A stretch of 64,000 nucleotides of DNA. It comes from Escherichia coli. Its GTDB lineage: Bacteria > Pseudomonadota > Gammaproteobacteria > Enterobacterales > Enterobacteriaceae. The position numbers and the translations under genes were made by a program. The notes beneath the pieces are model-generated. The model saw only the letters and a list, made by a program, of their open reading frames with translations. It had not been told where the DNA came from and did no database searches. Within the stretch, counting starts at the first letter, position 1. The number at the start of each line of letters is the position of its first letter. The stretch lies in NCBI RefSeq assembly GCF_024502345.1, contig NZ_JALDNN010000001.1, one strand, 5' to 3'. Below, in pieces: positions 18,278 through 30,688 of the stretch.

Positions 18278-18535
18278 ATGAGACTAGCCAGCCGCTTTGG
18301 ACGGACAAACCAGATCCGTCGCGATCGTCCGTTAACCCGCGAAGAACTGATGCAGGTCGTTCCCAGCGTATTCAGTGCAGATCGCCACGGTTCCAGGAGC
18401 GAAAAATACGCTTACATACCCACCATTACTCTGCTCGAAAATCTTCAACGCGAAGGCTTTGAACCCTTCTTCGCCTGCCAGTCACGCGTACGCGACCCTG
18501 ACCGCCGGGAGCACACCAAACATCTGCTGCGCCAT
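18278..18535 (+). pseudogene. DUF932 (YafZ/YfjQ-family) gene, N-terminal ~85 codons only; truncated at the cassette junction
   Basis: MRLASRFGRTNQIRRDRPLTREELMQVVPSVF...EGFEPFFACQSRVRDPDRREHTKHLLR parallels the intact paralog 44557-45375 up to about codon 85, then diverges. Confidence 0.8.
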
Positions 18536-18675
18536 CTTTGTAGACCGGAGAATGATGTTTGGATGAAAGCGAGTTTTGGTACCCTCATCATTGAGGGTAC
18601 CAACAGCAAAATACTCGGCGAATGCTATTGTCTAAGCACAGCGCCAAGCCTTAGCGGCACGAATAGTTGTTAACC

Positions 18676-21414
18676 TTACTCAGCTTTAGCAAACTGCTGG
18701 GTGAAGTAAGCCAATGAATTAGCTTCTTTTACGGCATCATGCGGAATGAGTAAGTATTTCCAAGGTTTGCCACCGTGCTGTGCAAGGTATTCACTGGCAT
18801 GACTACACCATTTCACACCACTGCGGGCTTTTTCGGTGACTTCCTCATTCCAACTGCCGTCTTGGTTTTGATGTTGAGTACTTTTAGTTTCAATCATCAA
18901 TACATAGTCGGCGGTTTCAGCAACGAAATCCGGCACGTATTCAGGATGCTCGCTACCGCGTTTGTAGTACATCTTGAATTGGCCTTTGGCAGGCTTAAAC
19001 CACTTCTCGCAGTCGCGTTCTAAAATCACCGCAAAACGGCGCTCAGTGTCTGAATCAAACTTTTGCAATGGGTATAGACAACGGCTAAAGCCGCCAAAGA
19101 GCATTTGTTTGATGCGACTGACATCGCGTACTGTATCACGGTAGCTTTGCACCGGCTGGTCTTGCGCTATGGTGTAAGCGCAGTCACGTAAGGTACTAAA
19201 GCCACTGCGTACATCGACGACGTACTCGGTTGCTTCTTCAAAGAAGTGGTTGTTCAGTTGCGCATGAATTAACTTCGCAATCGCATCACTCTGGTTTTGC
19301 AGAATGTTCTCAACCACATCGTCGTCGTTTTCAGCGGCCAGTGTATTGACAGCTTGAGTGGCTAGGTCAAACAAAAGTTCAGCTTGCTCGTCGTAAGGAA
19401 TATCGTCGTAATCGAACAGCTTCTTCAAAATATAGTTTTGTTTCACCGGCTCGTAGTTGCCCGAATCGCCTTCGCCACGAATGGTTTGGTGATTGTCTTG
19501 CAGGCTTTGTTGAATCAGAGTTCGGTCGATAGGTTTTAAACCTTTAATGGCAGCAATGTCCAAATCGAACGGGTGATAGCCGGTACGTACTTCACCTGAT
19601 GGTGAAACAATAATACGCGGAATATCTATGGTGTTATCCACCGTGAGCTGGGTGACTTGCTCAACAATCGCCGCAATATCCACCGATTCTTCAGTAAATA
19701 GCTCCCGTTGCTCTTGGGTTAACTGAGCTTTTACTTGTTCGGTGATCTGTGCTTTTACCTCAGTCGTTAACAATGCTTTGCTGGTCGGCGCATCGGTAGG
19801 GCGTGTTTGATATTGCTTGATCACGTCCAATGCAGCGCGGGCAACGGTTTGTTGGTTAGGCGTGGTATAAGTGGCTTTAGGTTCTTGTACCTCACGGTTA
19901 CCGTCTGCACCGGTTGCGGTTACACCTGAACCAGTCAGTTGCTGCTCTAGGTTCGATTTAACCTGCACACTTTGTTTGGTTACATCGTCTTCTGGGCGAT
20001 CTAATACGCGTGTTTTCAGGCGCAGTGGGTTATTCGGGTCGTTAGCCTCATCAACAATTTCTTGGAATTTGTCGTGCGCAACAATGCTCAGCGTATCGAC
20101 GGCTTCAACACCTGTACGTTTGCCATAAGGTAAACGCAAACCACGGCCAATTGACTGTTCAATTAGGGTTCTGGCGTTGGCTGCACGTAGTGGCACAATG
20201 GTGTACAGGTTAGTAACGTCCCAACCTTCTTTCAGCATGTTAACGTGAATGACGATCTCGGTTGGCTCATCGACATGCTCAACATTGAGCAGTGCTTGAA
20301 TAGTTTCTTCTTCTTTTTTACTGCTATCCACTTGAATGACTTTGCCACGGTAGCGGCCGTCAAACACTGTTTCAAGTTTGGTTAAAAGCTCTGCTGCATG
20401 CGTGGTATCACGGGCAATCACCAACATAAAAGGCTTAACTAACTTAGCATCGTTTTCATGTGCATAAGTGATTAAATCCACCTTGGTTTGCTCATGTAAA
20501 CGAATACCGTCCATTAACTTAATGGTTTCTAGTTCGTCTTTATCATATTGGCTGGCATCAAAGTTACGCTGAGTAACAACGGCAGGCTCTTTAACAAAAC
20601 CATCATCCATGGCACAGGCCAATGGGTAATCAATCACCACATTTTTAAAGTGCACAGGGCCACGACTTGATTCGGTAAATGGTGTGGCCGTTAGCTCTAA
20701 TGCGAATAGTGGATTAAGCTCATTGAGCGCACGCATACCGGCATCGGCACGATAGCGATGCGATTCGTCCATCAGCAGCACTAAGTCAGGTAAGTTCGAT
20801 AGATACTCAAAGTAGCTTTCGCCTAGGGTTTCCGCTAAACGCTTAATACGCGGGGCTTTGCCTCCACGTACTTCGGTGTTAATTTTCGCGATGTTAAACA
20901 CATTGATCCGAACCGAACCAAATAGATCGCCCATGACTTGTGCGCCGCGGCTCTCATAGTTATCACCGGTGATCACTTCTGGCGGTGCTAGCACAAAATC
21001 GGTAATGCCTTTAAACACGTACTTCGGTGAGGCGGGCGAGAAATCGCTGATCAGCTTTTCATAAATAGTCAGGTTAGGTGCCAACACAAAATAATTGCGA
21101 ATGCCATGTACCTGATACAAATAGGTAATAAACGCCCCCATCAAACGGGTTTTACCTACACCTGTTGCCAAGGCAAAACACAGTGAAGGAAAGTCACGTT
21201 CAAAATCGCTGAGCTTAGGAAACTGCGCTTTTAAGGTTTCTAATAGCTCCGGCACATCGCGTTTTGGGTTCAGTAGTTTGTGCTCAGAAGCACTAATCGC
21301 CACTGCCAACGCACGCAGCGAATCTTGCTGCGGCTGGCGTAAGCTTAAACGGCCAATAATATTATTAATGGCACGTAATTGGTCGGGTTTTAAGCTTGAT
21401 AAATCCATGGTCAT
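18676..21414 (-). CDS. res: Type III restriction enzyme Res subunit (SF2 helicase plus C-terminal PD-(D/E)xK nuclease)
   Basis: 912 aa with ATGVGKT (motif I), LLMDESHRY (DExH), helicase-C VNMLKEGWDVTNL..QSIGRGLR, and C-terminal PDFVAE...LMIETK. It lies 21 nt downstream of mod. Confidence 0.85.
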   Translation of the reverse strand: MTMDLSSLKPDQLRAINNIIGRLSLRQPQQDSLRALAVAISASEHKLLNPKRDVPELLETLKAQFPKLSDFERDFPSLCFALATGVGKTRLMGAFITYLYQVHGIRNYFVLAPNLTIYEKLISDFSPASPKYVFKGITDFVLAPPEVITGDNYESRGAQVMGDLFGSVRINVFNIAKINTEVRGGKAPRIKRLAETLGESYFEYLSNLPDLVLLMDESHRYRADAGMRALNELNPLFALELTATPFTESSRGPVHFKNVVIDYPLACAMDDGFVKEPAVVTQRNFDASQYDKDELETIKLMDGIRLHEQTKVDLITYAHENDAKLVKPFMLVIARDTTHAAELLTKLETVFDGRYRGKVIQVDSSKKEEETIQALLNVEHVDEPTEIVIHVNMLKEGWDVTNLYTIVPLRAANARTLIEQSIGRGLRLPYGKRTGVEAVDTLSIVAHDKFQEIVDEANDPNNPLRLKTRVLDRPEDDVTKQSVQVKSNLEQQLTGSGVTATGADGNREVQEPKATYTTPNQQTVARAALDVIKQYQTRPTDAPTSKALLTTEVKAQITEQVKAQLTQEQRELFTEESVDIAAIVEQVTQLTVDNTIDIPRIIVSPSGEVRTGYHPFDLDIAAIKGLKPIDRTLIQQSLQDNHQTIRGEGDSGNYEPVKQNYILKKLFDYDDIPYDEQAELLFDLATQAVNTLAAENDDDVVENILQNQSDAIAKLIHAQLNNHFFEEATEYVVDVRSGFSTLRDCAYTIAQDQPVQSYRDTVRDVSRIKQMLFGGFSRCLYPLQKFDSDTERRFAVILERDCEKWFKPAKGQFKMYYKRGSEHPEYVPDFVAETADYVLMIETKSTQHQNQDGSWNEEVTEKARSGVKWCSHASEYLAQHGGKPWKYLLIPHDAVKEANSLAYFTQQFAKAE

Positions 21415-21435
21415 TATAATTATCCTTATTAACCG

Positions 21436-23142
21436 TTAATCTTGCGCTGCATCGTCATCGGCAGACGCATCGTCAGTTAGGTTTGCCACGTTTAACGAAT
21501 AATCGTCCTGACCAAATTGGCACTTGTCTAAAATGGCTTTTGGCAGTTTTTTCAAGGTTAAATTGGTAAAACGACCTGGCTCGCAGCGAAATGCACCACA
21601 CATAACCAGTAAAGTTCGGTCACTGCCAACTTCTTCTGACAGCGCTTCTAATTTATCTACCGATAAGCTTTGTGTGGTGACATAAATATGATCCGTCTCG
21701 GTTGAATAACCGTGATCCCACCAATTCACTTCCGATGGCGCATAGGTAAAACCTTCCAGCTTACAAACGGCTTCGGCGAGCATTTCTGGGTTGTACTCTT
21801 TATTGATCACTTCCAAGCCAAACTTATCTTTCACAATTAAGGTCGGGGCAAGTTTGTAATAGCGGAAGCCACCGCCACCTTGCCAGTTTACAGACTTAGA
21901 AATACCACCTTGATCTTCGCCATCAATCACTTTTTGCAAGCGCGGGATAATATGGGTATGACAATGATCACCTAGCTCGACCGAGATCCAACGTCTTTTC
22001 ATCTTGTGAGCTACAGCAGCAGTAGTTCCCGAACCACCGAATGAATCAAAGACTAAATCGCCTTCTCGCGTACACATTTCGAAAATCCGCTTCAAAAGCG
22101 CTTCGGGTTTTTTTCCATTTTTGAAACTAACGCCGCCTTCATTTGCTATTCCATTCCAACTAATGTCAGTCCAAACATCAGTTATTAGTTCAGCAGGTTG
22201 CATCTCACCGTCAATTTCCAAAAGCCTATTGGAGTAAAAGACCATTTGCCTACCATTTGCGATATAAAAGCCTTCGACATCCTCATTTGGATGTACATAA
22301 ACCTTATCCCTATCTTTCTTTGACTTCTCGATAGTTTCTTTTCTCTTTATTTTAGCACCACCACCAATTGCAACGGATTGAAATACACGTTCTGCATTAT
22401 CAATTGCGAATTGTGCTAATTCATCATCAAATGTATCAGGCAGTTTTTTCTTGGCTTCTTTTGTATCTTTATAGCCATTGGCCTTTGCAAACGCATCGGC
22501 AATACCGCACCACGTCCAACTTTTATAATGGTCATCTGGGTTTAATAGATATTTGTTATATCCCGTATCATATCCTTTAGGTATATAGATTTTGTTAAGC
22601 GGTTTCTGGGTGCGATCTTTTGCGTATACAAGCAAAAAGTTTACTGTGGAGAAAACTGTGGCCCCTGTTGCCTTAAAGCCTGAAGGGTCATTTGTGGTCA
22701 TCGATATGGTATTTAACTGATTTGCACGACCAAAAATCTCGTCCATCAAAACTTTTAAATAAGCCATTTCGCAGTCATCTAAGTGAACGAATATTACTCC
22801 ATCATCACTTAGTAGATTACGAATTATTTCTAACCTATCCCTCATTAAGCCCAGCCAAATGGAATGCTCCAGACCATCATCATAGTGCTCAAAAGCACTT
22901 CCGGTATTGAATGGTGGGTCTATGTAAACACACTTCACTTTGCCTGCATATTCTTGCTCTAGCGCCTTCAATGCCAATAAGTTATCGCCAAAAATCAGTT
23001 TATTATCAAAAATATCGTTTTCGGTCACTTTTTGGCTGGCGTGATAAGACTTGCTCGGGTCTTCTAACAAAATGCGCGGCTCTAACTTTTTGCGCTCGTT
23101 TTTGCCTATCCAGGTCAGTTCTAATTTGGTTTTGCTCATCAT
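21436..23142 (-). CDS. mod: Type III R-M Mod subunit (beta-class N6-adenine/N4-cytosine DNA methyltransferase)
   Basis: 568 aa with VYIDPPFNTG (motif IV) preceding FDSFGGSGTTAAVA (motif I). The N-terminal LTWIGKNERKKLEPRILLED is typical of Type III Mod. Confidence 0.85.
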   Translation of the reverse strand: MMSKTKLELTWIGKNERKKLEPRILLEDPSKSYHASQKVTENDIFDNKLIFGDNLLALKALEQEYAGKVKCVYIDPPFNTGSAFEHYDDGLEHSIWLGLMRDRLEIIRNLLSDDGVIFVHLDDCEMAYLKVLMDEIFGRANQLNTISMTTNDPSGFKATGATVFSTVNFLLVYAKDRTQKPLNKIYIPKGYDTGYNKYLLNPDDHYKSWTWCGIADAFAKANGYKDTKEAKKKLPDTFDDELAQFAIDNAERVFQSVAIGGGAKIKRKETIEKSKKDRDKVYVHPNEDVEGFYIANGRQMVFYSNRLLEIDGEMQPAELITDVWTDISWNGIANEGGVSFKNGKKPEALLKRIFEMCTREGDLVFDSFGGSGTTAAVAHKMKRRWISVELGDHCHTHIIPRLQKVIDGEDQGGISKSVNWQGGGGFRYYKLAPTLIVKDKFGLEVINKEYNPEMLAEAVCKLEGFTYAPSEVNWWDHGYSTETDHIYVTTQSLSVDKLEALSEEVGSDRTLLVMCGAFRCEPGRFTNLTLKKLPKAILDKCQFGQDDYSLNVANLTDDASADDDAAQD

Positions 23143-23196
23143 TTCTGTGCTCTTATCTTGTGTTCGTTACTTAGCGTTATTATTCTACAGCAATCG

Positions 23197-25062
23197 CTAC
23201 GCAGGTTGTGCTTGGCGATTACTCGCTTGGGTGTTTTGCCCTTGTCGGCGTTGCGCTTGCTCGGCTAAGTAACTGAATAAATTCTGGTTGTGTGGGTCGT
23301 TCGCTTGAAGGCGTTCTTGTTTTGCTACAACTGCCGGGCTTTCTGCCAAGTTTAAATGGCTAATCCACACCGTTTGCATTAAACGTGCGGTATCGCCCAA
23401 GCGTTTGAAGTATGCGTGCGGCGCACTGCCTAATACTAATGCCGTAAAACTATCAAAAAATTGCTGACGAAGTTCATCAAAAGCGTGGCTGATTAATCTT
23501 TTAAATGCCGCTTGCTCGGTAATCTCAGGAGCCGTAATAGCGCCTTCAAACTGCGCCATTAATAGCGTGGTTATGCAGTAAGTAAAATGTCGATATACCA
23601 GTTTTTCTGGGCTTGGACTACTGCGCTCTGCGTTTGTACATAAGACTTGAATAGCCAGATAGCAGTTCACCGCGTTAATGGCGACGGCCCCCTGTAAATC
23701 TGTACTAAAAACGGCTTGGTACTCGGCACTTTCTTGGTTAGTGAATTTGCTTGGCTCTACTTTTAGCTGATAAGGCACGCGTACATCACCGTGCATACAG
23801 GCCAATGCTTTGGCCAAGGTGTCGATAGTAATGCTGCGAATACCCGCTGCTGCGCTTTGTTGTGGGCGGTAGAGATATTCAACACCAAACATTTTCATCT
23901 CTTGGCGCAAGCGTTCTTGGGTATCATCCAGCGCGGCAAAGTTGGCTAAATCGACCGGGTTTTGCAGGTTACGCGCTTTGGTTACTTGTTTGTGAAATGC
24001 ATCGTTACCCGTGTTGATAATGGTTACCATCACTTGAGCTTGGCTGATGTCTGCATTTGGGTTTTCACGCATAAACTGTGCAGCACTAGCAATGGTTTGT
24101 GCACCGTTAACGACGGACAGGCCATCGACTGCAACATGCTTGCTACCTGTGTGGCCTCTAATATTCCCTTTTGGTTTTACTGCATTGCCAACCAGAGTAA
24201 TGCCATTGTTAAGATAAATAAAATTTTCCGGCTCATGTAAAAGGGTGTCTTTAATCGCCCTATTTACCCCACGTCTGCCAGCACCAATAAAATAGCGAAT
24301 ATTTTTCTCGTAAAGTTTACGGTCATGAGTAGTGTGCAAGGCAATTAAATCGGTTAGCTTGGCGATACCAAATACGACTTTTCGTGGTTGTTCTTGCACT
24401 CGGAACTTATATACAGCGACACGCTCGTTTACCGTATCAACCGCATGTTCACTGCGAAGAGCCTGCTCAACATCGGTGGCGGTGTATTCTTGATATTCAG
24501 GTGCGATTTGCTCTTCACCTTCATCAATCAGCTCTTGGATCGCTGGTTGTAGGTAGTTTTGTGCTTGTATGGTAATGCCATTACCTGTGTATGCGACAAG
24601 CAGTTGAATTCTTTCGCACTCGTCTAATGCGGCTTCAATATTTGCTTGAAGGTTTTGAACATTTTGATTAAAGCGGTGAAATTGCTTGTTTAAAAGTAAC
24701 TTTACACCCTCAATAAAAGCCTGTGCTTCGCCCAATTGGAATTGCGCATCTTCCTTCATTTTTGACTGTACTAAGTACAGAGTCTGATCAGCTTCGTGAT
24801 AATAAATTGCATCAATACCATGGTCTTCATAGTCGTCCACCACAGCTTTTGCTGCGGTCACTACGTCTAAATCGAATTTTTGCTGTAGTACGAATGCGCT
24901 AAAAGCCCTGGAAATTTGCTTTTTAGGTTTATCTTCTCGCCCACCTTGCCCAAGCAATGGCGGTAAATGCGGCACAAAACGCTGCTGTAGCAGTTCTTTT
25001 AATAGGGTAAGAAATTGTGGTTGTAATGCTGCCAAGTGAGTTGTCCTTATTTTTATTGCCAA
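23197..25062 (-). CDS. AIPR-family (abortive infection phage resistance) protein
   Basis: 621 aa with [31 protein letters not shown]...[11 protein letters not shown], the AIPR signature as I recall it. The first codon is TTG (25062-25060), which overlaps the Abi_2 stop by 10 nt. Confidence 0.7.
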
Positions 25063-25982
25063 ATTGGCCGCGCTTGCCAGTCGGCTGGAAAGCCCATGCG
25101 GTCAATGTCTATTTGGTGATGATTTATCAATTGGATGAGTCGTTGCTTCCAGTGATGTTCACCACTGATCACATCCATGAGGTAGCCCAACATCACCAAG
25201 GTGTTATAAATTTTTCGTAAACGCCGGTCGCTATCGGGCAGGTTTTGCAAGCTTTGAATCAGTGCCGGTTCACCATGGCGTGGCAGTACCGTGGTTTTAA
25301 TAAAATCACGGTTCCATAGCCTAGAATGATGGGCACTTAAATTGCGCACTAGCGACAAATGCTCACAGAATGAGGTAAGAGTTTTTTCATCTAGGCCGTA
25401 GCTTTTGCTTATTACCTGGCGGTCGGCACGCAGCTTGATATTGCTGTACCAACAGGAAAGTTGCCCCATGGTTAACAGCTCAACACAGGCCCAAATAGGG
25501 GGTAGTGGCTCTTGATATTTTTGCGTAAGGTGCTTGATGAACTCTTCACGACTGCACTTTACCTCACCCGTGAGTTTGCCAAGGCTACTGGCGTATTCTA
25601 ATAAATCACCAAAGAGCTCTGGTTTTAAATGAGGGTGCGCGGTTTGGTATTTTTGGCTCAACTGATACGCAATTTGTGTGCGTAATGACACCTCAAAACG
25701 CTCGATGGCATCTAGCACTAACAAACGTAGTTCACGGTCGAAAACATATAGGCTTAGGACTTGGTCAAACTGAGTACCTGTGATAAACGTATGACTGGCA
25801 TGATCTTGCTCATAGGGCAAACAATAAGCCGCAAAACGATAGTAGTTCAGCTGTGCTAAGTAAAACTCAGCTTTCGGGACATCACTGATCACTAGGCCAC
25901 GTTGTTGCAACAAGCGTACTTGATCGCTAAAGCTTGTAGGGGGCTTGGTAAAAGCGACTTTAGGGACTGGTTTGCGGCTCAT
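25053..25982 (-). CDS. Abi_2-family (AbiD/AbiF-like) HEPN protein
   Basis: Carries [12 protein letters not shown]...YYRFAAY...VFDRELR...[16 protein letters not shown] (HEPN R-x4-H). The start is taken at MSRKP (25982); the longest ORF starts at 25994. Confidence 0.75.
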
Positions 25983-26139
25983 TTGACCTCCCATGCAACA
26001 GAAGATCGAATTTTGCGGGCCCCAGAAACGAGTAACCCCTCACAGGGCGCTGATCTGACGGGTAGCGGGAGGGGTGTTGTTGCAGTGATCATAGCCCCAA
26101 ACTGAAAAAAGTCAATGCTGGCGTTGAAATTGATTGTCA

Positions 26140-29034
26140 TCATTGAACCGTCCACCCAATGGTAAATAGGGTCTCTTGGCTGGTTTTTTTATTCAGTTTG
26201 CCTTCTAAGCTTTCAATCAGCTGTTCGCGCTTTTCGTCCACTTCATCTTGTTTATCAAACAGTTCACGGCGGCTTTTATTGCGCTGACTTTCTAACTGGC
26301 GCTGCTGTTTTTGCAGGGCAAGTTTCTCTTCCAGGGTTGGAGCTATTTTGGCTTCGCGGCGTACTTGCTTGATTTGCTTATCAAGCTCTTTTATAGATTG
26401 TTCAAGCCCTTCTTTTAAATCGTCTGCCCAAGAATCTAACTTGTTTACCTCTTGCTCGAAGAAGCTGAGATTACGATCGTTAACTTGCTTTTCGATGCCT
26501 AGTCTCGACTGCTGTAACGCATGCTGCAGCGCATATTGATAGCCAGGATATAAGGCGGCAAGTTCTTGCTCACTTACTTCACTTTGCACACAGGCACTAA
26601 GCTGCATCAGCTTTTGCACGACTTCACTTGGTAGCGGATGACCATGTTCATCTTGCGCGGCGAACAATAAATGGTCTTCGCTACGCTCCAATGATTCGAC
26701 ACTAAATTTTTGTAGGCTTAGTACACCTGACAAACCCACTAAGGGTTCTAGCATACTGATTTTTGTTTGGTGGTTGCTGTAATCAAAAATTACGCTGGCA
26801 ATGGGTAATTCACGTTGAAGCGCGTTGCTGATCACCCATTCACCCAGCGGGTGGGTGATACGATACACATGGGCATTGGCTAGTTTACCGGTTTCAATAC
26901 TGCCGCTTTGCTGTCCTCGGCGTACAAGTTGGTAGCTACCTGTAGGAGCCTGATTGATACTTTGATTAAGCGTAAAACTATGGTTGCTTGGGTCAATGTC
27001 TGCGATAGCTGCAAGTTCATGCGTACTGAGTTGCCAGAACCAACGGCCTACTTTATCGAGGCGTTGCTGCGCGGCATCTAGCTGAATTTTGAGTAAGTCG
27101 TGAATATCTTCATCGAAATTTTCCAGCAGCAGTTGCTGGGTCTCGCGCATTTTTTGGTTGATGTCGGCTTCTAGCTCTTTTTGCAATTGATCAAAAGCTG
27201 CTTCTATTTCCGCCGGTTGCCGACAAGTCTCGTATATATTTTGGATGCGTTTTTCAAAATCAATACCAGATTCAATGCTGCCTAGCACATCGTCCGATGC
27301 ACCAAACACGCCATCGAACAGATGGAATTTTTCAGTCAGTAACTCTAAAACACGCTGATCGGCTTTGTTGGCTTCGTTGAGGAAGTTGATCACCACAACA
27401 TCAAATTGCTGCCCATAGCGGTGACAACGGCCAATACGTTGCTCTACTCGTTGTGGGTTCCATGGTAAGTCATAGTTAATAAGTAACGAACAGAACTGTA
27501 AGTTAACCCCTTCTGCAGCCGCTTCGGTTGCGATCATAACTTCGGCATGATGGCGGAAGTAATCAATTAGGGCAGTACGGCGGTCAATTTGCGGTGAACC
27601 ACTCACCTTATCACTACCTTGGTTTTCAGCTAACCACTGCTGATAAACTTTGGTTGCTTCTGGATGGTTATTGCTGCCACTAAAGGTGACTAATTTATCA
27701 GCAAAGCCATTCGCCTCGAGGAAACGAGCTAGGTATTCTTGCGTGCGCTTCGATTCGGTAAAAATAATGACTTTACGTGGCGCCCCCATTTCCTCCATTT
27801 TGGCAAACCCTTGATTAAGCGCCGTTAGCAAGGCTTGGGTTTTACTGTCGGTGGTAATGGATTTAGCCTGCTCGATATAATGCTCAAGCTCGGCTATTTC
27901 AGCATTGAGTAACTCAAAGTCAATATCACTCTCAGGGGTATTGCTTTGTGTTTCTTCTACATACTCGCTGTACTCTTCTCCTAAATCATCACTCTCAACA
28001 AGCTCACTGATAATATCGAGGTCCGATTTAGCCTGTACTTTCAAGTCAACCAATCGGCGCTTTATAGTTTCGAGTGTGTTGAGCACTGCGTGCGAACTAG
28101 ATGCTAATAGCTTTCTCAGTATAAGGCCGGTTAAATGACGTTGGCTCTTGGGTAGTGCATAGCTCTCGTCCTTTTCCAATAAGGCACTAATACTTTCGTA
28201 AAGTGCCATCTCAGCATTAGAGGGTGTAAACGGTACGGTGAGTGTTTGACGTTGGGTATAGCGGACGTATTCGAGTACATCTTTGCGCAAGGTACGCTGA
28301 ATAAACCCGGTAAGTCGTTTCTTTAAATGCCCTAGCGCACTTTCGTTATTGACAAAGTGTTGTTTGAAGCTTCGCTCATCGCCGAAGATTTGATCGTCGA
28401 TAATGGTTGAAAGTCCATACAATTCCATGAGCGAGTTTTGTAAGGGTGTTGCAGTAAGTAATAGCTTTTTACTGCCATCTAATGCGCGGCGTAGCGTTTG
28501 ACCCATTTTATTGCTGCTACGATGTGCATTACGTAGCTTGTGCGCTTCGTCGATGACGACAATATCCCATGGCTCTAGCATTAGCTGCGTTTCCATTCTC
28601 GCAGCATAGTGATAGGACATAATAGAAACGCAGTGATTAGCTAGCGGGTTAGTTTGACCATTGTTAACACTAATGCGCCACGTTTTTGCATCAAGCACTT
28701 GCGTTGGTAAATTAAACTTATCGCCCAATTCCTGCGCCCACTGGCGTCGCAATGACGCCGGGCAGATGATCAATATGCGGCGTTTACGCTCTGCCCAATA
28801 CTGTGACAGTACTAAGCCTGCTTCAATAGTTTTCCCTAAGCCCACTTCATCAGCGAGTACAACACCTTTGCTTAACGGGTTGTTGAGCGCAAAAAGTGCC
28901 GCATGAATTTGGTGCGGATTGAGATCAACACTGGCATCAAAAAGAGATTGAGACAATTTATCAACGCCATTTTCAGCGTGGCGAATGGTTAATTCCTGCG
29001 CAAAGTATTTTGCTTGATAATCAGTTATTACCAT
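26140..29034 (-). CDS. SNF2-family helicase with a ~330-aa uncharacterised C-terminal region ending in a coiled coil
   Basis: Carries LADEVGLGKTIEAG, VVIDEAHKLRN, LLLTATPLQNS and INYDLPWNPQRVEQRIGRCHRYGQ. The preferred start MVITDYQAKYFAQELT at 29034 follows AAGGGG and overlaps the HTH gene's stop by 14 nt; the longest ORF starts at 29115. Confidence 0.8.
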   Translation of the reverse strand: MVITDYQAKYFAQELTIRHAENGVDKLSQSLFDASVDLNPHQIHAALFALNNPLSKGVVLADEVGLGKTIEAGLVLSQYWAERKRRILIICPASLRRQWAQELGDKFNLPTQVLDAKTWRISVNNGQTNPLANHCVSIMSYHYAARMETQLMLEPWDIVVIDEAHKLRNAHRSSNKMGQTLRRALDGSKKLLLTATPLQNSLMELYGLSTIIDDQIFGDERSFKQHFVNNESALGHLKKRLTGFIQRTLRKDVLEYVRYTQRQTLTVPFTPSNAEMALYESISALLEKDESYALPKSQRHLTGLILRKLLASSSHAVLNTLETIKRRLVDLKVQAKSDLDIISELVESDDLGEEYSEYVEETQSNTPESDIDFELLNAEIAELEHYIEQAKSITTDSKTQALLTALNQGFAKMEEMGAPRKVIIFTESKRTQEYLARFLEANGFADKLVTFSGSNNHPEATKVYQQWLAENQGSDKVSGSPQIDRRTALIDYFRHHAEVMIATEAAAEGVNLQFCSLLINYDLPWNPQRVEQRIGRCHRYGQQFDVVVINFLNEANKADQRVLELLTEKFHLFDGVFGASDDVLGSIESGIDFEKRIQNIYETCRQPAEIEAAFDQLQKELEADINQKMRETQQLLLENFDEDIHDLLKIQLDAAQQRLDKVGRWFWQLSTHELAAIADIDPSNHSFTLNQSINQAPTGSYQLVRRGQQSGSIETGKLANAHVYRITHPLGEWVISNALQRELPIASVIFDYSNHQTKISMLEPLVGLSGVLSLQKFSVESLERSEDHLLFAAQDEHGHPLPSEVVQKLMQLSACVQSEVSEQELAALYPGYQYALQHALQQSRLGIEKQVNDRNLSFFEQEVNKLDSWADDLKEGLEQSIKELDKQIKQVRREAKIAPTLEEKLALQKQQRQLESQRNKSRRELFDKQDEVDEKREQLIESLEGKLNKKTSQETLFTIGWTVQ

Positions 29035-29227
29035 CCAACACCCCTTTTCCTTGAGCTGCTTGCGTACTGATCCATTCTTCAAGATCGGATTGTTTAAAGC
29101 GCCAAGCATTGCCAACTTTAAAAGCAGGAATTTTATGTACCGCTGCTAGACGGTAAACAGTTCTCTCATTTACCTTCAAATACTCAGCTACTTCTTTAAT
29201 TGTCAGAACGGTATCAGTCATTTTCAC
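29021..29227 (-). CDS. Excisionase/MerR-type HTH DNA-binding protein (68 aa)
   Basis: LTIKEVAEYLKVNERTVYRLAAVHKIPAFKVGNAWRFKQSDLEEWI is an HTH_17/Xis-like pattern. It is the first gene of the minus-strand cassette. Confidence 0.75.
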   Translation of the reverse strand: MKMTDTVLTIKEVAEYLKVNERTVYRLAAVHKIPAFKVGNAWRFKQSDLEEWISTQAAQGKGVLDGNN

Positions 29228-29433
29228 TCGGCCACTTTGAAAAGTGCGTCAATTATCTAATGCGAGTGTCAAAATAGTACAAATAAGTACATGAATCAAT
29301 CTTATTCGGCACTTGCCGGAGCTCCTTGGCTTTAATCCTCATCAATTTTAGGTACAGTTTTCAGGCTCGGGGATAAAGTATAAAGAATGTCGTACTGCCG
29401 CTGCCAGAGCAATATTCCCCCCTGCTGGTTGTA

Positions 29434-30093
29434 TCAGAGATGGTATGCCGGTATTTTGCGGGTTGTTCCCGTCAGGTTATCGTGCACCTCCACGGTCGTC
29501 GTTACCACCGGCATTCCGGCCTTTCTCAGCCTCAGGACATCAGCCGCAATACGCTGACTGCCAAACCAGAACAGGCCGTCCAGTGCAGTCACCAGTAAAC
29601 CTGCCTCCAGCGCATACTTCAGCCGTTCACGGGGCGCTTTCACTTCCCTGGCAACCTGCTGATATGGCGATGATGTGCTTTCATTCCCAACCACGCGACG
29701 AATACGGTGAGACAGATGATACCGGTATATATCCGGCACACCAGAAAGACTGGCCTTCAGGCTGTACACGCAGCCAAACCGTTTATCGTTGAACACCACA
29801 TTTTTCTGGCTGATGCCCCATTCTTCACGCAGCGCGGCAATCAGTTGTGGTGTCCGGGTAAGCAGCAAGCGAAAAGGCAGCTCAAAACTGGTGACGTAAT
29901 CCACATTCAACAATGCAATACGCAGTCGTTCTTCTGGCCCGGCCTCTGTCTGCCGACACTCCTCCAGAACATCCTGCCACTGCCGGCGAAGACGGGGCGA
30001 TTCGTTCCGTTCTGTAAAACAGTATTTATCTGCCAGATAATCAATTCGTGTACGCATACTGAAAAGAATTCCGTATAAAGATTCAGCAGACAA
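29434..30093 (-). CDS. Hypothetical protein (219 aa), last gene of the module-B head operon
   Basis: Long ORF co-oriented with and 52 nt downstream of a YfjJ-like gene. It occupies the same position as 7767-8372 in module A. Confidence 0.45.
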   Translation of the reverse strand: MSAESLYGILFSMRTRIDYLADKYCFTERNESPRLRRQWQDVLEECRQTEAGPEERLRIALLNVDYVTSFELPFRLLLTRTPQLIAALREEWGISQKNVVFNDKRFGCVYSLKASLSGVPDIYRYHLSHRIRRVVGNESTSSPYQQVAREVKAPRERLKYALEAGLLVTALDGLFWFGSQRIAADVLRLRKAGMPVVTTTVEVHDNLTGTTRKIPAYHL

Positions 30094-30145: not shown

Positions 30146-30688
30146 TCACCGGATGATTGTTGCAATAACCAGTGGCCTCAGAGACTGAACAGCCGTTTTT
30201 AACGCAACGTATTGCTCTGATGTATCAGGCCGGGTAACCCGAAAACACCTTTCCACCCGACATTGTCCGCCCGTATCCATCCCCCGCCAGGTCTGCTGCA
30301 GTAAATCCACCACTTGCGAACATTGTTCATCAACTGTGACACTGGCTCGCGGGTGACAAATACTCGTCTGGCTGAGCAGCAACAGGCATCGCATTGTTGC
30401 TCCTCCATGTTGTTCCCGCAACCAGCGTAATACCACCGGCGATGATGGACTGGTCGTGTGATTACGCTCAGTAATACGTTCATAAAAGGAAGTACAGAAT
30501 GCATGAATATGTTGCCCGTTGATGTTTCCTTCTGCCGAATGGAGCGTGAAGTGAAATGCCAACAGATGTGGCCAGTGGTCCACCCCCTGCTGAACAAAAC
30601 GCCGGATTTCCCCCGGCGCTGAAAGTAAGGCTTCGGTTATTTGCACTATTTTACCCCTGTGAATTTTGTTAAGCCGGTGCAGACACAC
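30146..30688 (-). CDS. YfjJ/YagK-family protein, divergent subtype
   Basis: FVQQGVDHWPHLLAFHFTLH...VVLRWLREQHGGATMRCLLLLSQ parallels 8449-9015. The start is uncertain. Confidence 0.6.
   Translation of the reverse strand: MCLHRLNKIHRGKIVQITEALLSAPGEIRRFVQQGVDHWPHLLAFHFTLHSAEGNINGQHIHAFCTSFYERITERNHTTSPSSPVVLRWLREQHGGATMRCLLLLSQTSICHPRASVTVDEQCSQVVDLLQQTWRGMDTGGQCRVERCFRVTRPDTSEQYVALKTAVQSLRPLVIATIIR

Follow-up and report, generated by a model that had tools for sequence, protein, structure and literature searches.

An SNF2 ATPase gene leads a type III-like restriction operon

The window analysed here is a stretch of 64,000 nucleotides (nt) of Escherichia coli DNA (contig NZ_JALDNN010000001.1). 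On its minus strand, from 29227 to 18676, six co-directional genes encode a small helix-turn-helix (HTH) protein, an SNF2-family ATPase, AbiD, an AIPR protein, a type III-like DNA methyltransferase (Mod) and a type III-like restriction protein (Res). We consider it likely that SNF2, Mod and Res make up a three-gene defence module based on modification, in which the SNF2 protein is the ATP-driven motor subunit. The module has two accessory positions, a regulator slot ahead of SNF2 and a cargo slot between SNF2 and Mod. A preliminary description of this DNA had noted that the DISARM partner genes of an SNF2 helicase are absent; the partners here are Mod and Res of the same operon, which co-occur with SNF2 across phyla.

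The neighbourhood of SNF2 was surveyed in 80 loci, taken from contigs of one genome per species and fetched via conserved peptides of the SNF2 C-terminal region. A Mod homologue lay downstream on the same strand in 64 of the 80 loci, normally followed by Res, and three further loci carried a second class of type III Mod and Res, bringing the loci in which the module was seen to 67. Among the rest, ten contigs ended within 1.7 kb of SNF2 and four loci were unclear or decayed. The sample covered Proteobacteria of all classes, Verrucomicrobia, Acidobacteria, Chloroflexi, Firmicutes, Actinobacteria, Nitrospira, Gemmatimonadetes, Bacteroidetes and others. On IncFII plasmids of Klebsiella and in E. 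coli E24377A, a 55-58% identical SNF2 protein with the same C-terminus leads this second, larger class (PADLOC MTase_III PDLC03646 and REase_III PDLC03654).

The same association was observed from the opposite side. Each of the 23 plasmid records in which Res had a full-length homologue also contained SNF2, and exact-sequence look-ups of three Res homologues (Klebsiella/Salmonella, Yersinia and Thalassotalea) all gave the order regulator-SNF2-AIPR-Mod-Res. Because synteny from the SNF2 side and the reverse test from Res agree, the conserved unit is SNF2-Mod-Res and not HTH-SNF2. The preliminary description had proposed a neighbourhood survey and had allowed for the HTH-SNF2 pair occurring mainly outside defence contexts or as a RapA-like factor. 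This was not so, since the context was always defence or mobile DNA, although the recurring unit was the trio instead of the pair. The identities of SNF2 and Res across loci gave a Pearson coefficient of 0.89, which is driven by four close relatives, and a Spearman coefficient of 0.09, and were not used as evidence.

On a K. pneumoniae IncFII plasmid (L082, 9795-19547), an HTH-SNF2-Mod-Res array with a Mod of 1046 amino acids (aa) and a Res of 1120 aa lies between psiA/ssb and traM, a plasmid region that normally holds anti-defence genes. In Thalassotalea atypica (L093, 1063-12739), there are a BrxR-WYL regulator and two tandem Mod genes, with a second BrxR nearby.

The window's own Mod and Res proteins both have the sequence features of type III restriction-modification (R-M) enzymes. 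Mod, whose gene is upstream of Res, matched PF01555 N6_N4_Mtase (138.9 bits) and PADLOC MTase_III PDLC03636 (944 bits), and its translation shows the catalytic and S-adenosylmethionine motifs DPPF and FGGSG. Res matched PF04851 ResIII (73.7 bits) and PADLOC REase_III PDLC03648 (634 bits), with GVGKT, DESH and a C-terminal PDF...IETK in its translation. Judged by sequence, the cassette is a type III-like R-M system plus an SNF2 protein of the DrmD/AsaH lineage. It shares with the canonical systems EcoP1I and EcoP15I the mod-res order, an N6_N4 methyltransferase with a swappable specificity domain, and a Res that combines an SF2 ATPase with a PD-(D/E)xK nuclease at its C-terminus. Canonical type III R-M systems, however, consist of two genes and have no SNF2, and the Res clade of the window barely matches the PRK15483 model (30.9 versus 564 bits).

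Literature searches found no named system of SNF2 plus type III enzymes, which is an absence from the literature searched and not proof, and the trio, its cargo slot and the link to AsaH described below are apparently unrecognised so far. The present results give a name and boundaries to a large overlooked restriction class, with at least about 1200 clusters at 50% identity in many phyla. The module is carried on islands and conjugative plasmids of E. coli, Salmonella, Klebsiella and Yersinia, with a chromatin-remodeller-type motor as its fixed third component.

A variable cargo slot between SNF2 and Mod

SNF2 was next to Mod in only 4 of the 64 loci, and in the others 0.6-7.3 kb of mostly co-oriented genes lay between them. 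After clustering and scanning, this cargo was found to include AIPR proteins in 12 of the 64 loci and an SMC/LmuB-like ATPase of about 770-790 aa in 14 of them, as well as Septu PtuA/PtuB, HEC-01A, IetA/IetS, AbiLi, AbiD, DUF2130, ImmA/IrrE-HTH and RmrA-like proteins. In total, the cargo was drawn from more than 15 unrelated families around a constant Mod-Res. The SMC/LmuB-like ATPase directly follows SNF2 in L019, L022, L025, L027, L029, L030, L032 and other loci, and may define a four-gene subtype.

In the window, the slot is occupied by AbiD (Pfam Abi_2, 175 bits; PADLOC AbiD, 238 bits) and an AIPR protein (Pfam AIPR, 134 bits; PADLOC AbiU, 128 bits). Considering the diversity of cargo across the surveyed loci, these two are exchangeable passengers and not fixed members of the cassette. 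AbiD shows only 66-70% nucleotide identity between cassettes whose SNF2 and Res are 90-97% identical, and AIPR is missing from the related cassettes of Methylophaga sulfidovorans (L002) and Salmonella IncFIB plasmids (L083). The slot can be searched for new defence genes, and it offers a natural setting in which to study how first-line restriction is wired to second-line abortive infection.

EcoprrI-PrrC is a known case of an abortive-infection gene embedded in an R-M operon, in which the second defence line is coupled to the first. The cassette resembles it, and other genes nested in R-M or BREX operons, in having abortive-infection genes inside an R-M operon, which suggests a similar coupling. 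It differs in that the host is type III-like and that the slot, which follows the SNF2 gene, accepts many unrelated systems.

Relation to AsaH-IetAS

One E. coli locus (L085, NZ_CP031215.1, 10504-21248) has the order SNF2-IetA-IetS-Mod-Res, with IetA scoring 349.6 bits and IetS 1185 bits; Res is frameshifted in that strain. The Walker lysine of its SNF2 is K65 and the DEAH aspartate is D165. Residues 4-963 of the window SNF2 align with residues 3-944 of this protein at 40.1% identity, the C-terminal module included. A recent preprint describes AsaH as an SNF2 helicase "acquired" by IetAS, and reports that with the AsaH substitutions K65A and D165A the T7 defence by AsaH-IetAS is lost and toxicity appears (Liu-DS4; 10.64898/2025.12.08.692795).

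If the L085 SNF2 is AsaH, the SNF2 family has its first functional data, and the three-gene unit of the preprint is the front part of an SNF2-cargo-Mod-Res array. The published "IetAS-associated helicase" would then be re-read as the leader gene of an SNF2-Mod-Res module. The window SNF2 and AsaH belong to the same family over the full length, the L085 layout is SNF2-cargo-Mod-Res, and ATPase activity is needed for AsaH-IetAS defence. In contrast, the cargo there is IetA/IetS and HTH is absent, while the window slot holds AbiD and AIPR and so offers no IetA/IetS partner. The preprint takes AsaH as an accessory of IetAS, and its accessible text does not mention a pan-phylum SNF2-Mod-Res synteny.

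Proposed role of SNF2

The best-supported interpretation places SNF2 in a type III-like restriction system, either as its third subunit or as a close helper. Mod would mark host DNA, and Res together with Mod would attack unmodified DNA. SNF2 enzymes are double-strand DNA translocases, and the window SNF2 is expected to translocate along double-stranded DNA as well. Its C-terminal alpha/beta domain and coiled-coil arm may dock onto the Mod/Res complex or onto the embedded effectors. By analogy with RapA, which recycles RNA polymerase, SNF2 would probably use ATP to load, move or recycle Mod/Res or the effectors on DNA. It may also influence methylation, and, as the AsaH phenotype suggests by analogy, it could keep embedded abortive-infection effectors silent until infection. 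The three-gene form is the simplest setting in which to ask what an SNF2 ATPase does in defence, compared with DISARM, BREX type 3 and ARMADA.

Several points weigh against this interpretation. EcoP15I works without SNF2. The diversity of the cargo families is too great for a single specific contact between SNF2 and cargo. In Shewanella sp. AS1 (L006), identity to the window proteins is 95% for Res, 88% for AIPR and only 72% for SNF2, and this shuffling of SNF2 and Res alleles argues against a tightly co-evolving interface, with modules recombining independently. The assignment of the L085 SNF2 as AsaH, if correct, is based on residue numbers and gene order and not on an accession. In addition, SNF2 plus IetAS are described as the working parts of Liu-DS4, and Mod and Res are not mentioned in the accessible text (10.64898/2025.12.08.692795), so that in some contexts SNF2 may serve the cargo and not the restriction enzyme.

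The last point leads to the main alternative, which we regard as possible but unlikely, that SNF2 is a cargo-serving helicase as in the AsaH model, sensing infection and controlling AbiD and AIPR, with Mod-Res as a mere neighbour. In its favour are the AsaH data, in which ATPase mutants lose IetAS-dependent defence and are toxic and the system is described as AsaH plus IetAS, and the position of cargo directly after SNF2 in 60 of the 64 loci. However, in the four other loci, and also in Paracoccus pCP157_04, E. coli E24377A and Klebsiella plasmids, SNF2 abuts Mod without any cargo, and the more than 15 unrelated cargo families stand against the constancy of Mod-Res.

A broader form of the SNF2-Mod-Res interpretation can be offered only tentatively. 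SNF2 could be a general licensing hub whose alpha/beta domain and coiled-coil arm link the type III-like restriction complex to whichever abortive-infection system occupies the slot (AbiD/AIPR, IetAS, Septu and others). It would keep the effector silent as long as restriction copes, and release it once the motor meets unmodified or restriction-resistant DNA. If true, effectors would plug into a modular "guard" architecture, and the AsaH result would be generalised to dozens of effector families.

An optional HTH gene, probably a regulator

The HTH gene starts at 29227 (GTG, 68 aa) or at 29221 (ATG, 66 aa, the choice of PGAP) and ends at 29021. The SNF2 open reading frame (ORF) runs from an ATG at 29034 to 26140, with AAGGGG 6 nt upstream of the ATG, and the HTH stop is thus 14 nt inside the SNF2 gene. 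The same ATG was chosen by PGAP in identical E. coli loci. A longer SNF2 ORF from TTG 29115 was rejected as the gene, since homologues from more than 60 genomes align from residues 1-3. The gene ends, the AAGGGG and the overlap are thus as first described. The Xis/MerR-type assignment of the HTH likewise stands, with 69.9 bits to Pfam HTH_17 and 62.5 bits to the excisionase-type TIGR01764.

The preliminary description went further and treated HTH and SNF2 as a pair, which would be an independent two-gene defence system. We consider this very improbable. Its attraction is the 14-nt overlap, which implies translational coupling and recurs in other genera, namely Methylophaga, Aestuariivirga and Yersinia, and in Klebsiella with an unrelated HTH. 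The regulators, of HTH_17 or HTH_26/XRE type, end exactly 14 nt inside SNF2 in the window (29021-29034), L082 (10027-10040), L090 (3556-3569) and L092 (3324-3337). However, this recurrence is explained by the SNF2 N-terminus, because its conserved codons 4-5, Thr-Asp/Glu (ACT GA.), give a TGA in the upstream frame. A homologous HTH was found upstream of SNF2 in only 3 of the 63 loci where the SNF2 start was complete and preceded by 400 nt or more, and one more was found in Yersinia L092. It was missing from the other 60, and three unrelated regulator families occupy the position: in Klebsiella-type loci there is an unrelated 81-aa HTH_26/XRE protein and in Thalassotalea a BrxR-WYL regulator. 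An HTH-SNF2 pair by itself was seen on no untruncated contig, and treating the pair as a unit is not borne out.

The HTH protein is more simply read as an optional transcriptional regulator of the operon. By analogy with C-proteins or BrxR, it may control, and possibly autoregulate, an operon promoter in the 135-nt leader, and the translation of SNF2 would be coupled to that of HTH. The leader (29222-29356) is near-identical in three unrelated replicons, with the homology break at 29356/29357. A consensus scan of the leader for promoters and terminators gave no strong sigma-70 site, and a repeat search gave no convincing operator, only a weak 10-nt direct repeat (29295-29304 and 29341-29350).

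Structure of the SNF2 protein

The SNF2 protein belongs to the SNF2/Swi2 group, with 119.3 bits to PF00176 SNF2-rel_dom and 69.4 bits to PF00271 Helicase_C. Motif Q is at 39, Walker A is GLGKT (K68), DEAH is at 162, TATP at 194, IIFTES at 423, motif V at 503 and motif VI, QRIGRCHRYGQ, at 532-542. All the ATPase motifs are intact, as first described. The acidic insertion noted between the RecA lobes corresponds to the 71 residues of aa 345-415, which include 19 Asp/Glu and 3 Lys/Arg.

The C-terminal region had been described as about 330 aa without an assignable domain. A Pfam scan indeed found no domain after residue 541, although the number of residues that follow motif VI is 422. Residues 543 to about 666 are still common to DrmD_b-type helicases, and the lineage-specific part is about 300-325 aa. 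None of the more than 220 homologues of the last 326 aa in a 90%-clustered protein collection had a Pfam domain in this part. A profile search of 1.84 billion cluster representatives gave 1195 matches at E<=1e-30. The profile also held about 125 helicase positions, which inflated the counts at E<=1e-10, and only E<=1e-30 was used. The C-terminal module, with at least 1195 clusters at 50% identity, was always at the extreme C-terminus of full-length proteins of about 940-1000 aa.

An AlphaFold2 model of the C-terminal fragment, made from a 38-sequence alignment, had a pLDDT (predicted local distance difference test) score of 90.9. The model begins with a long helix, which is followed by an alpha/beta domain, a two-helix antiparallel coiled coil and a last strand. 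The helices of the modelled coiled coil are about 65 and 45 residues long (fragment 194-259 and 263-308; protein aa 832-946), and the final strand, at aa ~950-963, is predicted to return to the alpha/beta domain. This domain has no solved structural relative. The description of the C-terminus as unassigned was correct.

In the coiled coil, W869, D871 and D872 and several Arg, Gln and Glu residues are invariant among the 38 sequences, which are 39-74% identical. Because of these invariant residues, including the KLDxWADD motif, the coiled coil is a conserved surface and not a charged spacer or low-complexity noise, and the charged, heptad-like stretch of the preliminary description now has a confidently modelled form. 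It weakly matches the C-terminal end of the DrmD_b models (20-24 bits, positions 745-859 of ~870), so that the helicase-domain-coiled coil plan is common to SNF2 and DrmD_b and the middle domain is not.

Rare fusions occur ahead of the SNF2 family, one with a UvrD helicase plus PD-(D/E)xK nuclease and another with HATPase_c_2 plus the STAS-like DUF4325 (the pair P0190, 1995 aa, and P0185, 1375 aa). In addition, the name "adenine-specific DNA-methyltransferase" is attached to many JGI fragments of the SNF2 C-terminal region that have no methyltransferase domain, probably a propagated annotation error.

Comparison with DISARM, MADS and other SNF2-containing systems

The SNF2 protein is not explained by any characterised system, as originally stated. 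It falls below the cut-offs for DrmD_b, DrmD, DpdE and RapA. The accompanying statement that only class 1 DISARM includes an SNF2 helicase needs correction, because BREX type 3 BrxHII, DpdE, ZorD, HmaA, ARMADA ArmA and AsaH-IetAS do so too.

In class 1 DISARM, with DrmD and DrmMI, a defence operon that includes a methyltransferase is likewise headed by an SNF2 ATPase; homology covers the ATPase core and post-helicase region, and DrmD_b also has a coiled-coil ending. The cassette differs in having type III Res as effector and a larger, non-matching alpha/beta domain before the coiled coil. MAD1, like C-proteins and BrxR, is a small DNA-binding protein at the 5' end of a defence operon; the MADS core genes, however, are not in the cassette.

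That the pair is a degraded class 1 DISARM with a DrmD remnant, or part of MADS as the PGAP label "mads1" would have it, is even less probable than the two-gene system. The best PADLOC and NCBIfam matches of SNF2 are indeed DrmD and DrmD_b, but only over part of the protein: 697.2 bits against a cut-off of 950 for NF038318 DrmD_b (aa 30-666 only), 304.6 against 610 for NF038317 DrmD, and 693 bits for PADLOC DrmD PDLC02619 (aa 30-665 only), and the C-terminal 300 aa differ. The MADS label arose because the HTH passes the NCBIfam MAD1 NF047737 cut-off of 80 by 1.9 bits (81.9 bits, a marginal pass); it scored 38.2 bits with PADLOC mad1. Neither drmA, drmB (DUF1998) nor drmC (PLD) was found among the six cassette proteins or nearby in PGAP-annotated identical loci. 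No cassette protein matched the MADS models besides mad1, MAD2-8 being absent from the cassette and the annotated identical loci. MAD6, MAD7 and MAD8, defined as mandatory in the MADS preprint, are thus not in the operon. In the same preprint, MAD1 is given an accessory role as a "widespread regulator", and deleting mad1 changed defence little. The conservation of the trio across phyla also argues against a remnant.

BREX type 3 BrxHII and ARMADA ArmA have other partners (PglZ/BrxC, or a YprA helicase), and the coiled-coil hairpin of the window SNF2 is distinct. ARMADA and YprA systems were rejected for lack of a YprA/DUF1998 helicase. The SNF2 protein was also below the NCBIfam cut-off for DpdE. 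Finally, a housekeeping RapA-like transcription factor is scarcely credible, since the PRK04914 score is 155.3 bits with partial coverage against a RapA cut-off of 576, the helicase starts at about residue 37 and leaves no room for N-terminal Tudor domains, and, of 5426 complete E. coli genomes, only 29 carry the gene, located on islands and plasmids; it is 95-97% identical in Methylophaga.

A mobile cassette with exchangeable parts

In the 29 E. coli genomes the SNF2 gene is 99-100% identical. The block 18524-29356 was found in an E. coli selC island (L001), an E. coli pheU/V island (L089) and Salmonella IncFIB plasmids (L083), and also in two marine bacteria, Methylophaga sulfidovorans (L002) and Methyloprofundus (L003). 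The blocks in common are about 90-99% identical, with sharp homology breaks at both ends. Neither repeats nor a recombinase were identified at 18524 and 29356. The presence of the 10.8-kb cassette in these settings at about 90-97% identity implies recent transfer across orders.

Within this near-identity, cassettes that are 97-99% identical on either side of the Mod centre (22063-22728) share no nucleotide similarity inside it (window versus L089, L083 and L002), which looks like a swap of the target-recognition domain that would change specificity. Since the Mod centre, the AbiD allele and the presence of AIPR all vary amid near-identity, the block is a mobile cassette with exchangeable parts. 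In the Salmonella IncFIB plasmid cassettes, an IS256 element follows SNF2.

Features of the window and its surroundings

Coordinates of the cassette features in the window, with the basis of each assignment
Feature	Position	Strand	Basis
Whole mobile cassette (regulatory region, HTH, SNF2, AbiD, AIPR, Mod, Res)	18524..29356	-	Homology ends shared by four other settings
Leader 5' of HTH, 135 nt, presumed promoter/operator region	29222..29356	-	Near-identical in three unrelated replicons
Small HTH_17 protein (excisionase/MerR-type, MAD1-like), putative optional regulator	29021..29227	-	Pfam, TIGR01764, NF047737
SNF2-family ATPase, 964 aa, first core gene	26140..29034	-	SNF2-rel_dom and Helicase_C, motifs
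Acidic insertion between the two RecA-like lobes, aa 345-415	27790..28002	-	Residue composition
SNF2 C-terminal alpha/beta domain (predicted), aa 668-833	26536..27033	-	No solved structural relative
Antiparallel two-helix coiled-coil hairpin (predicted), aa 832-946	26197..26541	-	AlphaFold2 model, invariant KLDxWADD motif
AbiD / Abi_2, cargo in SNF2-Mod slot	25053..25994	-	Pfam Abi_2, PADLOC AbiD
AIPR protein (AbiU-like), cargo in SNF2-Mod slot	23197..25062	-	Pfam AIPR, PADLOC AbiU
Type III-like N6-adenine DNA methyltransferase (Mod), second core gene	21436..23142	-	N6_N4_Mtase, PADLOC MTase_III
Type III-like Res (SF2 ATPase and C-terminal PD-(D/E)xK nuclease), third core gene	18676..21414	-	ResIII, PADLOC REase_III

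The selC-island context of one strain was rejected as the window's own context. ARAGORN found no tRNA gene in the window (1-64000); the cassette islands of other strains abut tRNA-Sec or tRNA-Phe. The similarity of the window to the selC island L001 ends at 30150. The ORF adjoining the cassette (29434-30093, minus strand) is annotated as "ECs1377 family protein" in L089 and is a pseudogene with an internal stop in L001. Further along, the 38-50 kb part of the window resembles CP4-57-like island genes (YeeU/CbtA, RadC, antirestriction and DUF932) at 91-97% identity.

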